Shown: positions 16,183-47,063, counted from the stretch's first letter. The stretch is DNA of 64,000 bases from Erysipelotrichaceae bacterium (GCA_015058945.1 SVBF01000011.1:12527-76526); one strand, 5' to 3'. A program made the numbers and translations. Notes: generated from the letters alone by a model not told the origin.

Positions 16183-16198
16183 CGTGATTCAAATCACA
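16183..16198. promoter_or_regulatory. CRP/FNR-type palindromic operator candidate
   Basis: CGTGA-TTCAAA-TCACA matches the TGTGA-N6-TCACA consensus at 9 of 10 positions. It lies in the divergent region between the ABC operon and the Crp/Fnr gene. Confidence 0.5.
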
Positions 16199-16789
16199 CT
16201 TATGACTTTATTATCCTTATTAAAGAAACAAGAGGGCATAAAGCCCCAAATACTGCCTTTGAGAAAGGGCGACATCCTTTGTCACGAAGGAGAGGTCTGC
16301 CATGGCGTATACCTAGTCCTCAAGGGAGCCGTAAAGATTTCCTCCTATGCGTTAAACGGCGAGGAAATCATCTATAACTACGTCGAGGAAGGCGGAATCT
16401 TCGGGAACAATTTGGTCTTCGCGAGCGATCCGTCGTTCCGCGGGAACGTCATCGCGGCCAAAGTAGGGGAAATCGTCTTCATTTCGAAGGATCAATTGGT
16501 TCATTTATTACAGTCAGACGAGGAATTCCTAAAGGAATATCTCCGCCTTCAATCCGATTTTGGCAAAAACCTGAACGCGAAGCTGAAACTATTGTCGTTT
16601 TCCCTGGCGGAGGATCGCCTTGTCTTTTATTTGCAGCAGCAAGGGAAGTCAGTGGCGTTTGGGCGCGTATCTGCGTTAGCGGAATCTTTGTTCATAAAGC
16701 GTGAGACGCTATCCAGGTTGCTTCATCGCATGGAAGCCGAGGGCAAAATCAAATTGTCCAAAGGCAGGATCGAGTACCTAGGAAACTAA
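16184..16789 (+). CDS. Crp/Fnr-family transcriptional regulator
   Basis: A cNMP-binding-like beta-roll (LRKGDILCHEGEVCHGVYLVLKGAVKI) is followed by a C-terminal HTH (RETLSRLLHRMEAEGKI). The tracked start is GTG at 16184. ATG at 16202 is an alternative that would leave the palindrome outside the CDS. Confidence 0.8.
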   Translation: MIQITLMTLLSLLKKQEGIKPQILPLRKGDILCHEGEVCHGVYLVLKGAVKISSYALNGEEIIYNYVEEGGIFGNNLVFASDPSFRGNVIAAKVGEIVFISKDQLVHLLQSDEEFLKEYLRLQSDFGKNLNAKLKLLSFSLAEDRLVFYLQQQGKSVAFGRVSALAESLFIKRETLSRLLHRMEAEGKIKLSKGRIEYLGN

Positions 16790-16821
16790 GGCAAGCGGTC
16801 CAAAAGAACAAAATCTAAAAT

Positions 16822-16854
16822 CGATTAATTGTTCGGCACCGAACTATTTAATCG
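16822..16854 (+). terminator. Imperfect inverted repeat after the Crp/Fnr gene (possible terminator)
   Basis: CGATTAA..GTTCGG-CA-CCGAAC..TTAATCG forms a two-segment stem. It is followed only by a weak T-run. Confidence 0.3.
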
Positions 16855-16860
16855 TTGGTG

Positions 16861-17013
16861 GGTTCCATATAGATGAGATCCAGGGAAAAGCTCCCGATAG
16901 GATTTCCGGAGCTGCAGAACGCAGCCGGAGGACGGATCAAACTGCGCGGGGATGAGCTGCGGGAACCCGGAGGAGATGGGAGAACCCGCGCGGAAAGACA
17001 ATGGAATAATTGA
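16861..17013 (+). other. GC-rich structured island / 46-codon ORF of unknown nature
   Basis: Two nested stems. The first is TCCGG-AG-CTGC-AGAAC-GCAG-CCGGA (16905-16929). The second is a 9-bp stem, CTGCGCGGG (16942-50) pairing with CCCGCGCGG (16985-93). An ATG at 16873 opens a 46-codon frame ending at TGA 17011-13. The island is flanked by AT-rich DNA. Confidence 0.3.
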
Positions 17014-17512
17014 TGCGATGTGGAATCATTAGTTGACGAAATACATAATGATTTGATTTAAGCGAGACAAAAACATAATCACCGTTGATTGTCCAAACAG
17101 TCGGCGGGATTTTAAGAAAAATAAGCAAAAATATGTTTAGTAGATTTTCAGTAGTTCAAATTTGTGAACAGATTTTCCGCATTTTTGGAGCGCAAATTTT
17201 ATAAACAATAAATATTAATTCATAAAAATACGCATTTTATCGGCTTTTTTACATCTTTTACTTAACATAATGGACATTATGCGAAGTTAAGTATTTCGAG
17301 GCAATTCGTTTGAAATTCAAAACTACTAAAATTCACGTCATTAGAATTCCGTGGCTGCTTCCACCGCTATTGAATGTCTTTTTGATACTCGCGATAGGTT
17401 CGGGATCTGAATAGATTTATTATTGACGTTTTTCTACGGACAGTATTTGTTAGTGGATCACGCTACTTCCCCTACTTTTTCTTCTATTCCGAATATGGAT
17501 AAAGAAAGTTTT

Positions 17513-17638
17513 CCTCCTCGGGGACTAAGGTAGAAAAAGGCCTCAAGCCTCTGACGAGCTTGAGGTCCAAACCACTACCATAATTTAGCATTATGGGCTC
17601 GTCCCTCGCAAGCCGGGCAAGCGAGGGGCTTGCTGGGA
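17513..17638. repeat. Copy 1 of a ~126-nt three-hairpin repeat
   Basis: By eye it is about 90% identical to 17827-17954. It contains GGCCTCAAGC..GCTTGAGGTC, CATAAT-N5-ATTATG and TCCCTCGC..GCGAGGGG hairpins. Confidence 0.85.
17532..17567 (-). terminator. Rho-independent terminator inside repeat copy 1 (minus orientation)
   Basis: The minus strand reads GACCTCAAGC-loop-GCTTGAGGCC followed by TTTTT. Confidence 0.6.
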
Positions 17639-17721
17639 CATATTAGCATATCGAGAAAGTTTTTGAGCAAATTCGCGTTTTCGACGGGTATATGTCGGTG
17701 AAGAGACATAGGAGGATTCTT

Positions 17722-17847
17722 ATGCTCTCTATCCCAAATGGTGGTCTACCCGGCCCGGCCACCGAGGAAAGGAAGACTCATGCTCAAGGCCCTAATCGTG
17801 CTGATGATGCTCATGCTGATCTACCTCCTCCTCGGAGACTAAGGTAG
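17722..17847 (+). CDS. Candidate 41-aa small ORF (hydrophilic, Pro/Arg-rich)
   Basis: ATG lies 6 nt after a consensus AGGAGG. The product is MLSIPNGGLPGPATEERKTHAQGPNRADDAHADLPPPRRLR. The 20-codon hydrophobic ORF is nested in another frame. Confidence 0.3.
   Translation: MLSIPNGGLPGPATEERKTHAQGPNRADDAHADLPPPRRLR
17780..17842 (+). CDS. Candidate 20-aa hydrophobic peptide (type I toxin-like)
   Basis: AGGAAAGGAAG lies 4 nt upstream of the ATG. The product is MLKALIVLMMLMLIYLLLGD. The stop codon abuts the T-tract of the convergent minus-strand terminator of repeat copy 2. Confidence 0.35.
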   Translation: MLKALIVLMMLMLIYLLLGD

Positions 17848-17954
17848 AAAAAGGCCTCAAGCCCCTAGTGAGCTTGAGGTCAAACACCTATCCATAATAT
17901 AGCATTATGGGCTCGTCCCTCGCAAGCCGGGCATAGGCGAGGGACTTGTTGGGA
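17827..17954. repeat. Copy 2 of the ~126-nt three-hairpin repeat (immediately 3' of rsfS)
   Basis: It aligns with 17513-17638. Most of the roughly 12-14 differences by eye fall in loops and linkers, while the stems are preserved. Confidence 0.85.
17846..17881 (-). terminator. Rho-independent terminator of the yqeG-rsfS operon (inside repeat copy 2)
   Basis: The minus strand reads GACCTCAAGC-TCACTAGGG-GCTTGAGGCC followed by TTTTT, about 80 nt after the rsfS stop. Confidence 0.7.
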
Positions 17955-17959
17955 AAAGC

Positions 17960-18298
17960 CTAGCTGGCTTTCTTCGCAATCTTTTCCAAGAGGCTTTCTA
18001 GGTCGACCATTCTTCTGTTGCCGGGCAGCATCAAGTGGACGATGACTTCTTCGCCTTGGACGATGACCCAACCGGAATCGGGCTCCCCTTCCTTGACGGT
18101 GACGGGGACGCCGCCTTTCTCTAACGCGTCTTCGAGATGCCCCTGAATCGCCCCGAGCATTCTGGGGTTGCCGCAGGTACCGATGATTACATAACTTGCG
18201 AAGGGCGATGTCTCATGAACATCGATGGAGGTCACGTCCTCCACTTTGTGTTCTCCTAATGCGTCGAGGATGAGCTTGAGTTCGTTCTTGGCGTCCAT
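17960..18298 (-). CDS. rsfS: Ribosome silencing factor RsfS (iojap family)
   Basis: 112 aa. Motifs: KVEDVTSIDVHETSPFASYVIIGTCGNPRMLGAI and the GWVIVQGEEVIVHLM pattern. It is the last gene of the yqe operon, as in Bacillus. Confidence 0.9.
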   Translation of the reverse strand: MDAKNELKLILDALGEHKVEDVTSIDVHETSPFASYVIIGTCGNPRMLGAIQGHLEDALEKGGVPVTVKEGEPDSGWVIVQGEEVIVHLMLPGNRRMVDLESLLEKIAKKAS

Positions 18299-18300
18299 TC

Positions 18301-19404
18301 TTATTCGTCTTCTCCTAAATATAAGTCAAAGCATTGCTTGGTCGATTCGTTGTCGACGGTGTAACCACGGGAAAACAGATATTCCTTATTGGCTTTGAGC
18401 ACGGCCATGAAGCCGACGTAGTAATTCCGGTAGCAGGCGTTCATCAAGCGTCTGGAATCAAACCCGCGCGTGGGTTCGATTTTATCGGAGGCATAGATGA
18501 TCTTGGATAGCGGCGCCATATGGGCCCTGCCGGTCGCGTGGAAGCAAATCGCGTCGAGGATGGCGGAATCCTTGATCCCGAAGATCGTCTCGGCGAGGAA
18601 GGCGCCGACGAATTGGTGATAGGTCCATTTGGGATAGGAGACGTATTCGGGGAAGCGATCCTTCATGATCTTCATCGTGGTCTCTTCGTCCATCTCCTTG
18701 CCACAATCGTGGAGCAAACCGGCGATATATGCTTTGCGGTAATCCTCCACTTTGTTCTTCGCGGCGATGGCGAAGGCCAGGTTCGCCACGGAAACGCTAT
18801 GAAGGAGGCGGCGCTCCGAAACAAGGGAGCGGAGCTTGGACATGTAATAGATGCCGTTGCTCTCGATATAGTCGCGCACCGCCAAAGGCACATCCACGTC
18901 CTGGAGGTTGCGCACCTTGGTCGAGCTGACCGGACCGGAGCCTTCGTAAGGGAGGCGCATCATGTTGAAGGATTGAAGAACCTTATCGTCGATCTCGACG
19001 TCGGGTCGAGACACATATAAAGGCGTCGCGAGCTGGCAGATCTTCTCGGGATCTTTCCAATTGGGGAAGGAATTGACCTGATCGGCGCCGATGAGGAGAT
19101 ATAGCTTGGTGTTCTTATGGGTCAAAGCCATATGGCGGACCAAGTCGATGGTGTAATTGGTGTCCGCCTTGCCCTTCATCTCGAACAAATCGATGGAGAA
19201 GGCGGGAGAGCCATCGCGCTTCAAGGCGAGCTGGAGCATTTCGAGGCGTTGCTTCGGCGTGGCTTCCGGGGTCTTCCACCTCGGTGTCTTCGACGGCACG
19301 AAAACGACGTCCGCATTCAAAATCATGCTCGCCGCACGGGCGATGCGAAGATGGCCGTTATGGATGGGATCGAACGATCCGCCGTAGATGACGATGGACT
19401 CCAT
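18301..19404 (-). CDS. nadD: Fusion protein: nicotinate-nucleotide adenylyltransferase NadD + HD-domain YqeK
   Basis: The N-terminal half has YGGSFDPIHNGH and SSTKVR (NadD). The C-terminal half has HSVSVANLA and LLHDCGK (YqeK-type HD hydrolase). It is a single 367-codon frame. Confidence 0.85.
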   Translation of the reverse strand: MESIVIYGGSFDPIHNGHLRIARAASMILNADVVFVPSKTPRWKTPEATPKQRLEMLQLALKRDGSPAFSIDLFEMKGKADTNYTIDLVRHMALTHKNTKLYLLIGADQVNSFPNWKDPEKICQLATPLYVSRPDVEIDDKVLQSFNMMRLPYEGSGPVSSTKVRNLQDVDVPLAVRDYIESNGIYYMSKLRSLVSERRLLHSVSVANLAFAIAAKNKVEDYRKAYIAGLLHDCGKEMDEETTMKIMKDRFPEYVSYPKWTYHQFVGAFLAETIFGIKDSAILDAICFHATGRAHMAPLSKIIYASDKIEPTRGFDSRRLMNACYRNYYVGFMAVLKANKEYLFSRGYTVDNESTKQCFDLYLGEDE

Positions 19405-45412: not shown

Positions 45413-46651
45413 TCAATGCGCGAGGGTGCTCGCGTTTTCTTGCCCTTCCAGCGTTTCGTAGTCGCGCAGGATGTTATGGAGAAAATATGGCGTCTCCCTG
45501 CGCTTTTGTTCGAAGAGTTCCCCGTCGGTGAATAATTTCTCGCTCTCCATGCCGACATAAAGCGCCGAGAGGAGATAAAGGATCAATGTCTTTGAGGATA
45601 ATGGCCCTGAGGTGAGGGCGAAAAGCATCGCTAGGATAAAGGCGGCGGAGAGGAAGAGAAATTCCTTCACGGCGAGGAAAGAGGCGCACTTCTTGTTGCA
45701 CCGCCTTAAGGCGAGGCGCGTCTCTTCGCGCCGCTCGGCGTTCAGGCAGGAATGGAAATAGGTCGCCTCTAGCCCCACCGCTTTCTTTTGGATTTGCTCC
45801 AGATGGGGATAAAAGAGCAGATGGCAGACGAGGCAGACCAAGGCCATGGCGGAGCACGCCGCGGCCAAATAGAGGTCGTGGAGGAAAAAGAAGACGAGGG
45901 CCGCCACGAAAGACCCAAGATGGCTAAGGACGGAGGGAAAGGAAAGGAAGGCGGCCCTCTTATACGCATGGTAATGGACGAAGAGATCTCTCCTGCGCGA
46001 AAGGTTCTCTGCGTCGATCCCATCCATATAACGCGAATCGAAACGCTCCATGTTCAGGGAAAGCAGGCGCTTTTGCCCTAACGAGGCCATCATCGCCCCG
46101 GCGAACAAGGCGAGGGAGAGCATGGGCATGGAGACGACGTCCAGGAGCAAGAACCCCAGGACGAGCAACAAAAAGGGAAGAAGGGCGAAGACCAAGGAAG
46201 GAACAGGGAAATGGGAAAGGAATCGCGGAGGCCTTGGTGGTTCGCCCTTCTTTTCGTATCCCTCCACGCGGAGGAACACGCCGGTAAAGGAGCACGCGAG
46301 TTCCCTCCCCTCGACCCACCGCTTACCTCGGTCTGGGTCGAGAAGAAGAAAACGCTTGCCCCTGCGCTTGGCGAGGTAGGACATGTGCAGCCGTCCTTCC
46401 TCGCGTAGGGTGATGAGCAAAGGGAACTCCGGGCGAAGGACGATCTCTTCCGGATCGAGCGTCTCATAGGCGCGGAGGTGAAGCCCCCATTTCTCGGCAT
46501 AGGAAAGAAGATCGCTTAGGTCGGGCGAGGTTTCGACGTGGGGTTCGGGTAGGAAGGCGAACCTCTTGTCTTTGCTTGCGTCGACGAGGGCCATCTTCAC
46601 GGTCGCGAAGCCGCATCCTTTTTGCTGAGCTTGGTAAACGAGGGTTTTCAC
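45413..46651 (-). CDS. C39-peptidase domain + six-helix ABC-exporter-like membrane domain protein lacking an ATPase domain
   Basis: The N-terminus aligns by eye to ComA-type C39 domains. YQAQQKGCGFATVKMAL carries the oxyanion Gln and the catalytic Cys. RLHMSYL carries the His, and LLLDPDRGKRW matches the DP-D-G box. About six hydrophobic helices follow. The ORF ends 34 nt before ybeY without any Walker motifs. The start is GTG. Confidence 0.7.
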   Translation of the reverse strand: MKTLVYQAQQKGCGFATVKMALVDASKDKRFAFLPEPHVETSPDLSDLLSYAEKWGLHLRAYETLDPEEIVLRPEFPLLITLREEGRLHMSYLAKRRGKRFLLLDPDRGKRWVEGRELACSFTGVFLRVEGYEKKGEPPRPPRFLSHFPVPSLVFALLPFLLLVLGFLLLDVVSMPMLSLALFAGAMMASLGQKRLLSLNMERFDSRYMDGIDAENLSRRRDLFVHYHAYKRAAFLSFPSVLSHLGSFVAALVFFFLHDLYLAAACSAMALVCLVCHLLFYPHLEQIQKKAVGLEATYFHSCLNAERREETRLALRRCNKKCASFLAVKEFLFLSAAFILAMLFALTSGPLSSKTLILYLLSALYVGMESEKLFTDGELFEQKRRETPYFLHNILRDYETLEGQENASTLAH

Positions 46652-46705
46652 ACCTACCTATACCCAGCGAAAAACGGTTTTTGCTCAAAAACTTTTCAAG
46701 AAATT

Positions 46706-46784: not shown

Positions 46785-46961
46785 TTACCATTTCTTGCGA
46801 CGGGCAAGTTTGGATTTCATTTTGCGCTTCAAGCCAGGTTTGAGGTAGGCTTCGCGCTTGCGGGTTTCGAGGAGGATGCCGGACTTGTTCACGCCACGTT
46901 TGAAACGACGGAGCGCGTCATCACAGGTTTCGCCTTCGCGGACGACGACTTTGACTGCCAT
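46785..46961 (-). CDS. rpsU: 30S ribosomal protein S21
   Basis: Not in the ORF track on this strand. My translation is [68 protein letters not shown] lies upstream. Confidence 0.92.
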
Positions 46962-47063
46962 TAGAGTTCACCTCCTCCCTTTCGGACAAGGCAAAAGATA
47001 CTCTTTTTTGGGGTGATGCGCAACGATTTTCTAATAGAAGGATAACTCGGACTATATACCCGC

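Follow-up and report, generated by a model that had tools for sequence, protein, structure and literature searches.

In the 64,000-nt window analysed here (Erysipelotrichaceae bacterium, GCA_015058945.1, SVBF01000011.1:12527-76526), a short cassette occupies the intergenic region between rsfS and a gene for a Crp/Fnr-type regulator (crp), an insertion site of an uncultured ruminant-gut Bacilli species that is variable between strains. The cassette consists of an operator- or promoter-like motif followed by two nested small open reading frames (ORFs), one of which encodes a 20-aa hydrophobic peptide, and it is bracketed by two copies, R1 and R2, of a structured repeat, R, belonging to the 3' end of rsfS (Table 1). 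We regard it, tentatively, as a plausible candidate for an orphan type I toxin-like cassette; the likeness to toxin-antitoxin (TA) modules of type I arises because a tiny peptide resembling a transmembrane (TM) helix is encoded convergently with a structured, terminated RNA. Of the results, the population pattern of the cassette has the best support and was the least expected, and it needs explaining whatever the 20-codon ORF does: zero substitutions in 185 nt against 12–15% synonymous divergence is the pattern of a recent sweep or drive across strains from different host animals.

Nested small ORFs behind a promoter-like motif

An earlier, sequence-only reading of this DNA had described a 41-codon ORF (ORF41) with an AGGAGG 6 nt upstream and, nested within it, a 20-codon ORF (ORF20), both with stop codons at the start of the second repeat copy beside a T-tract, and two repeat copies with convergent minus-strand terminators. 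All of this was recovered as claimed, the coordinates, lengths and ribosome-binding sites from the sequence and the ORF listing, and the repeats and terminators from repeat, fold and terminator scans. ORF41 spans all of ORF20 in another frame and ends 5 nt later, and both stops fall in the first 22 nt of R2, 1–6 nt from the A-run at 17848–17852 that gives the minus-strand U-tract. The protein of ORF41 is hydrophilic and rich in Pro and Gly; its frame can be extended to an ATG at 17692 (51 aa, ORF51), and that of ORF20 to an ATG at 17738 (34 aa, ORF34), the form annotated by public gene callers.

Type I toxins are hydrophobic peptides of fewer than 60 aa (PMC6562991), and the ORF20 product is a peptide of this size and character with a predicted TM helix. 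Its grand average of hydropathy (GRAVY) is 2.2 and its best 18-residue window 2.66, the top value for a free-standing small ORF in the 64 kb, and a hydrophobic window of 18 residues matching it arose in 0 of 20 block shuffles. Codon usage gives ORF20 a log-likelihood ratio (LLR) of 0.65 bits per codon, above the mean of 0.52 for in-frame gene windows; among stop-free off-frame windows, no more than 4.6% attain that value. ORF41, at −0.50, is noncoding-like, with a value so low in only 0.3% of in-frame windows, and the N-terminal extension that distinguishes ORF34 from ORF20 is also noncoding-like. Taken together, the AGGAGG context, the codon usage and the hydrophobicity point to ATG 17780 as the meaningful start, and ORF41 may be a leader, a ribosome-loading or coupling ORF. 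The window holds 14 AGGAGG-N4-9-ATG sites, 8 of which begin ORFs of at least 80 codons, so the ORF41 site is of the kind used by real genes. In the predicted plus-strand fold, the Shine-Dalgarno (SD) sequence and AUG of ORF41 lie within a local hairpin, and those of ORF20 are paired with CCUCCUCCUCGG at the ORF20 3' end.

Upstream of the ORFs lies the motif of about 46 nt, marked by the palindrome GTTTTTG-AG-CAAAAAC and by GGGTATA. The same genomes carry it at two further loci with a match of at least 92% (at contig ends, outside the window), each time followed by a plausible gene start, GGAGG-N9-ATG at one and ATGTCGGTG at the other. A relative within the window stands directly upstream of the C39-peptidase gene that heads a ybeY-cdd-era-recO-glyS-dnaG string. 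Because the start codon lies only about 10–25 nt from GGGTATA at the motif loci, leaders there would be very short or absent. In the metatranscriptome X6, the motif-associated contigs reach depths of 905 and 1534, against 286 for the rsfS contig. From this context, we infer that the motif combines an operator with a promoter. A scan of metagenome_contigs returned 0 matches to it, and the part of the cassette that follows the motif has no source copy of at least 90% identity elsewhere in the same metagenomes. Beside the relative within the window, between it and an S41 peptidase gene, an unannotated-looking 58-codon ORF at 46961 (minus strand) has a perfect AGGAGG-N9-ATG and is preceded by a terminator hairpin and GGGTATATAG at 47061.

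A duplicated rsfS 3' untranslated region as possible antisense partner

The two repeat copies are about 130 nt each and 88% identical, with no third copy in the window, and R2 starts 5 nt past the rsfS stop codon. The minus-strand terminator scan matched 17879–17855 in R2 and 17565–17541 in R1, a GC hairpin followed by a T-run in each case. Aligned with one another, eight distinct strain copies of R yield a consensus structure of two hairpins, H1 and H2, and the terminator, in which the H1 and H2 stems are invariant, the loops vary, and three pairs of the terminator stem are maintained through changes on both sides. In two strain contigs (L091 and L092), the R1 terminator hairpin is swapped for an unrelated GC stem followed by T5. 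Because the stem changes compensate and the replaced hairpin retains its T-run, R is a structured 3' untranslated region (3'UTR) of rsfS with a genuine intrinsic terminator. On the contigs examined, R always lies downstream of rsfS, and the depth of its 34–36-nt core in DNA metagenomes is about 2–3 times that of the flanks, which corresponds to about two copies per genome. Linker and loop haplotypes are swapped between the copies across strains (linkers 17880–17891 in R2 and 17566–17577 in R1; loops 17865–17868 and 17551–17554): the R2 linker of the window is present in R1 of L091, and its R1 linker in R2 of L081. This exchange of haplotypes indicates gene conversion between R1 and R2.

The sequence-only reading had cast the repeat element as the antitoxin RNA; against this, the element proves to be the rsfS 3'UTR and terminator plus one duplicate. 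A dispersed small RNA (sRNA) or intergenic repeat family was also rejected, as there are two copies in one context. Nor is R an integron attC site (it is not a single imperfect hairpin and lacks R' and R'' cores) or a miniature inverted-repeat transposable element (terminal inverted repeats are lacking and there are two copies only), and the similarity of a supposed second rsfS 3'-end remnant upstream of R1 was unconvincing. In two sister species (RsfS 75–78% identical, same rsfS-to-crp synteny) and in L001, the next genome relative (NadD-YqeK 58% identical), R is absent and a plain hairpin follows rsfS. Exact-pattern scans for the R core returned 0 matches in genome_contigs and 0 in metagenome_contigs, the latter a weak negative because this collection misses the Joint Genome Institute (JGI) contigs that carry R; R, spacer and motif had 0 matches in viral_contigs. 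A 'distant' blastn search against phages and plasmids yielded no match, and blastn of R and spacer against 80 loci of NadD-YqeK relatives nothing significant. Rfam gave no R match at the gathering score in the window, nor any match to R or spacer at E up to 10 in 17000–18100, where CRISPR-DR57 and sR33 matched outside both with E above 5. ARAGORN found no tRNA or tmRNA in the window.

If the cassette is a type I toxin locus, plus-strand transcription would proceed from the motif, starting near 17700, and ORF20 would be the true product, a single-helix membrane peptide of the type I toxin kind, and ORF41 would do no more than load ribosomes or provide coupling, the part that mok plays for hok. 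Pairing with CCUCCUCCUCGG would mask the ORF20 SD and AUG. Ahead of rsfS, a terminator scan found nothing better on the plus strand than a weak hairpin at 17948–17964. The cassette mRNA would therefore have to run antisense through R2, where about 110–130 nt of it would match the 3'UTR of the rsfS operon mRNA as a perfect complement; with any R1 RNA the complementarity would be about 88%. Decay set off by such a duplex would keep the peptide silent, as happens in txpA/RatA and bsrG/SR4. An extended −10-like TGCTAATAT could possibly act as a promoter of its own for an R1 transcript about 100 nt long; the sigma-70 scan left it unreported, as it has no good −35.

It is very improbable that the minus strand is the functional one, with R as a 5' leader, made up of a structured element, an attenuator hairpin and the SD GAGGAGG, controlling ORF22, or, in a variant, a longer gene of 79 codons (17814 to 17575) of which ORF22 is a part and which is broken by one TAG. 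A perfect GGAGGAGG does stand 9 nt before ATG 17814, the repeat unit runs 22 nt past the terminator and ends in the same SD in every copy, and ORF22 shares one frame with a 44-codon ORF at 17575–17709. Against this, R1 and the single R of one strain allele (allele C, below) carry the same SD with neither start codon nor ORF; the codon usage of ORF22 is neutral (LLR −0.06), and it has no family match or homologue, only a meaningless 7-residue match to PSMdelta (E 0.64). R lies directly after the rsfS stop and behaves as the rsfS terminator. The stop codon of rsfS itself is TAG, which shows that TAG truly terminates translation here; the read-through gene was dropped for that reason.

Strain alleles and the invariant spacer

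To compare alleles, contigs encoding an identical RsfS protein were aligned over the intergenic region. Allele A (the window, L082, L091, L092) has the order R2-spacer-R1. Allele B (L081, L085, L090 and an X6 contig) lacks 151 nt including R1, with the ORFs intact and a joint of 17502 to 17654 at AGAAAGTTTT, a direct repeat of 10 nt. In allele C (L083, L084), R is single, and the 314 nt 17512–17825 are missing together with the small ORFs they contain. Most simply, B and C are deletions from A, by 10-nt microhomology and by R–R recombination respectively, with the reverse order also possible. The exact 34-aa product was found on 20 contigs, all at the rsfS locus. An apparent single-copy joint in X7 was dismissed as an alignment effect, the contig ending inside the repeat.

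The spacer between the repeats does not share the divergence of its surroundings. In rsfS and nadD, L091/L092 and L093 differ from the window with a pS of 0.12 and 0.15 while the amino acids hardly change; they also differ by 8–17% in R1/R2 and 6–20% in other intergenic DNA, whereas their spacers are identical at 185 of 185 and 140 of 140 positions. Nothing changes within 17702–17864 in four further haplotypes, which come from metagenomes of sheep, goat and fermentation origin. Under neutrality about 20 spacer differences would be expected, and the probability of none is about 1e-9. All spacer variants lie within the motif: allele B carries 17684 A>C and a T>A in the junction repeat, which may equally be placed at 17660 or 17509, and X15 carries 17685 C>T. 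The spacer would thus be either very young and recombined across diverged backgrounds, or constrained at nearly every base. We favour recent spread over constraint because known type I loci vary readily and tend to differ between close strains (PMC6562991). On either account, the invariance argues against old junk.

Confinement of variation to the motif would also suit a functional element that is not a TA module, which we judge unlikely: a harmless small membrane peptide, or a convergent promoter whose antisense RNA tunes rsfS-nadD by transcriptional interference or by RNase III cleavage in R2/rsfS, the ORFs being incidental. That the motif is common to a housekeeping operon (ybeY-era-recO) suggests co-regulation, a good plus-strand terminator is lacking ahead of rsfS, and loss of R1 or of the entire cassette is tolerated. 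An antisense promoter alone, however, leaves unexplained both the codon usage and hydrophobicity of ORF20 and why the 124 nt that follow the motif do not vary. A conserved small membrane protein would normally also occur in sister species, and ORF20 does not.

Returning to the type I reading, the layout, the motif, the codon usage, the predicted pairing of the ORF20 SD and AUG with its own 3' end and the accessory, invariant nature of the cassette partly support the earlier proposal of a candidate TA module, and a set of findings weighs against it. Searches of Pfam and NCBIfam with the five small ORFs returned no toxin family, and nothing for ORF20 or ORF34 at E up to 10. A phmmer search of ORF34 against 1.84 billion representatives recovered only the query itself, and a homologue search with ORF51 gave no candidate. 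ORF20 and ORF34 showed no similarity to known type I toxin families (Hok, Fst, Ldr, Ibs, TisB, ShoB, TxpA/BsrG and others), and ORF20 has no paralogues, being at a single locus on all carrying contigs. The sequence-only reading had named the absence of the ORFs beside repeat copies in related genomes as a ground for refutation. This is in part what was found: no such ORF accompanies R1 or the R of allele C, the sister species have neither R nor the ORF, and no comparable hydrophobic small ORF occurs in allele C or in the sister species. When the spacer was compared by Smith-Waterman with the intergenic regions of the sister species, the sole similarity was a borderline one of 30 nt to a conserved block. 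The existence of alleles B and C, which have lost R1 and the whole cassette respectively, indicates that neither is strictly required, and total invariance fits recent spread better than toxin-specific selection.

The RNA side of the proposal is similarly burdened. No dedicated antitoxin promoter was found above chance (the promoter-like site inside R does not exceed expectation: 3 found, 2.5 expected), and the motif lacks sigma-70 −35/−10 spacing. Plus-strand read-through had been described as fully complementary to the minus-strand RNA, which holds if plus-strand RNA enters R2; minus-strand RNA stopped at the R2 terminator, in contrast, ends at the stop codons, short of the coding sequence and without overlap. 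The metatranscriptome data are assembled, unstranded contigs of depth 2–5. Among them, X11 contains the rsfS operon and a 151-nt contig over the R2 terminator (17790–17940, depth 2) that extends about 60 nt past the U-tract, with no coverage over the 900 nt beyond R1. This contig fits either read-through from rsfS or plus-strand RNA entering R2. The raw 2026 metatranscriptome runs X40–X42 gave 0 reads.

Several of these results would be expected of a rearrangement scar, an explanation that we find doubtful but that carries real weight. The cassette would then be a non-functional duplication or insertion remnant at the rsfS terminator (for example, what is left of an integrated element whose duplicated attachment region is R), with a captured promoter fragment and fortuitous ORFs, the hydrophobic run stemming from a CTN/ATG-rich stretch. 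No ORF has a homologue, the locus is single, and the cassette is absent from the sister species and allele C; its flanking direct repeats, with 10-nt microhomology or about 130 nt of homology, explain B and C as simple deletions. About three AGGAGG-ATG sites per window would arise by chance, on a rough base-frequency estimate that was not computed, and the minus-strand one is part of R. The fold of the ORF region alone is not significant (z-score only −1.5), which counts against the type I reading as well. Old junk, however, should have accumulated about 20 substitutions and has none, and young junk is unexpected in most sampled strains (cattle, sheep, goat) without selection or drive. ORF20 is an outlier in both codon usage and hydrophobicity, and the lack of a source copy for the post-motif part is likewise hard to reconcile with a scar.

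A bolder form of the type I reading is one that we consider quite improbable. In it, the cassette would be a minimal selfish element of about 190–310 nt (operator-promoter, coupling ORF and 20-aa membrane toxin), bracketed by copies of a host terminator and spreading by homologous recombination, and its antitoxin would be the 3'UTR of an essential-operon (rsfS-nadD) mRNA, tying toxin repression to rsfS expression. If the type I reading is true, the cassette would represent an orphan type I toxin family in an uncultured ruminant-gut Bacilli lineage, among the smallest self-contained modules of its kind; if it is only a scar, the interest is local.

Adjacent features and comparison with known type I systems

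The features of the locus are collected in Table 1. A single 367-aa protein (18301–19404, minus strand) joins NadD (nicotinate-nucleotide adenylyltransferase) to the YqeK HD-domain phosphohydrolase, a fusion found also in the relatives among Bacilli and Erysipelotrichaceae-like metagenome-assembled genomes, with identity up to 58%. The GTDB-based collection holds no close species genome for this organism. No Rgg-like gene lies beside the small ORFs, their neighbours being rsfS and the Crp/Fnr-type regulator gene, so the arrangement is not that of Rgg/SHP-type pheromones.

Table 1. Features of the rsfS-crp intergenic region and related sites, in window coordinates
Feature	Position	Strand	Details
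Crp/Fnr-type regulator gene	16184–16789		cNMP_binding and HTH_Crp_2; about 0.9 kb from the small ORFs
10-nt direct repeat	17503–17512 and 17654–17663		AGAAAGTTTT; brackets the allele-B 151-nt R1 indel
R1	17512–17640	−	H1 17601–17629; H2 17578–17596; terminator hairpin 17539–17568; U-tract 17534–17538
Extended −10-like sequence	17640–17648	−	TGCTAATAT; about 7 nt upstream of R1 start; read by eye
Spacer (cassette)	17641–17825	+	185 nt between the repeats; holds motif and small ORFs; absent in allele C
Motif	17654–17701	+	AGAAAGTTTTTGAGCAAATTCGCGTTTTCGACGGGTATATGTCGGTG; near-palindrome GTTTTTG-AG-CAAATTC; GGGTATAT
ORF41	17722–17847	+	SD AGGAGG 17710–17715, 6 nt to ATG; 41 codons; TAG stop 17845–17847
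ORF22	17746–17814	−	22 codons, MSIISTIRALSMSLPFLGGRAG; antisense to ORF20; SD GGAGGAGG 17824–17831 is the end of R2
ORF20	17780–17842	+	SD-like GAGGAAAGGAAG 17764–17775; 20 codons, MLKALIVLMMLMLIYLLLGD; TAA stop 17840–17842
R2	17826–17955	−	H1 17915–17945; H2 17892–17910; terminator hairpin 17853–17882; U-tract 17848–17852
R2 conserved tail	17826–17847	−	ends in GAGGAGGA
rsfS	17960–18298	−	last gene of the yqeG-yqeH-yhbY-nadD/yqeK-rsfS string (Pfam families, ORF listing); R2 is the 3'UTR of the transcript
Motif relative	46650–46695	−	GAAAAGTTTTTGAGCAAAAACCGTTTTTCGCTGGGTATAGGTAGGTGTG; abuts the GTG start of a C39-peptidase-domain membrane protein

The remainder of the rsfS-crp intergenic region contains conserved and variable elements of its own. 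A perfect palindrome, GTTCAAATTTGTGAAC (GTTCA-N6-TGAAC), at 17154–17169 lies about 370 nt downstream of the Crp/Fnr-type gene, within a conserved block of the intergenic DNA, and is a candidate binding site of that regulator; the sister species retain only its TTCACAA half. In the block at about 17140–17330, a two-part palindrome or hairpin, ACTTAACATAATGGACATTATGCGAAGTTAAGT (17260–17292), is nearly 100% conserved 3' of rsfS in the sister species and slightly altered in the genus-level relative, within intergenic DNA that is otherwise unalignable (comparison of L001, 5008–5045, and of the rsfS-crp intergenic regions of L094 and L095, RsfS 75–78% identical). Conserved inverted boxes, TTTAGTAG and CTACTAAA, flank the hairpin, whose sole database echo is a partial Rfam JA03 match at 17260–17287 (E 0.64), and the block may be an unannotated sRNA or an operator. 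A second hypervariable patch occupies about 16800–17130, including the GC-rich 16860–17000; it is replaced by barely alignable sequence in L083, L084 and L092, whose flanking genes are 93–96% identical, and in the X7 contig 273 nt (16854–17126) are exchanged for 275 other nt.

Among known systems, the closest in arrangement are txpA/RatA, bsrG/SR4, bsrE/SR5 and yonT/SR6 of B. subtilis, which likewise combine a TM-type peptide of fewer than 60 aa with a convergent RNA partner. The antitoxins of B. subtilis pair over 100–140 bp at the toxin mRNA's 3' end, a length close to the potential perfect duplex of about 110–130 nt here (PMC6562991). In the predicted ORF20 mRNA fold the SD is masked, as in bsrG, and the location is accessory and variable between strains, as in the other 3'-overlap systems. 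Unlike them, the partner here would be the 3'UTR of housekeeping rsfS or its R1 duplicate and not a dedicated sRNA with a demonstrated promoter. ORF20 is only 20 aa long, lacks a charged C-terminal tail and is unrelated in sequence to these toxins, and the cassette lies outside prophage and is known from sequence alone.

Ibs toxins are peptides of 18–19 aa with near-pure hydrophobic composition, and in both respects ORF20 resembles the E. coli Ibs/Sib systems. Sib RNA, however, is antisense across the entire ibs ORF, whereas the terminated antisense RNA here stops at the stop codon; Ibs/Sib are multi-copy paralogous repeats, against one locus here, and the Pfam scan of ORF20 returned no family, Ibs included.

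In hok/mok/sok, hok is coupled to an overlapping leader ORF (PMC6562991), and ORF41, with its strong ribosome-binding site, its position in another frame over the hydrophobic ORF20 and its seemingly unselected protein sequence, is arranged comparably; a mok-like coupling role for ORF41 would follow by analogy. Sok pairs with the 5' leader, whereas the complementarity here is at the 3' end, and ORF20 has no Hok homology.

With RNAs derived from 3'UTRs and terminators, R shares its position right after the rsfS stop and its build of two invariant hairpins and a covarying intrinsic terminator. It differs from them in having no Rfam match, in being replaced by a plain hairpin in the sister species, and in that its duplication brackets a promoter-ORF cassette. 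If the type I reading holds, the 3'UTR of a housekeeping mRNA, duplicated around the cassette, would act as the antisense partner in place of a dedicated sRNA.

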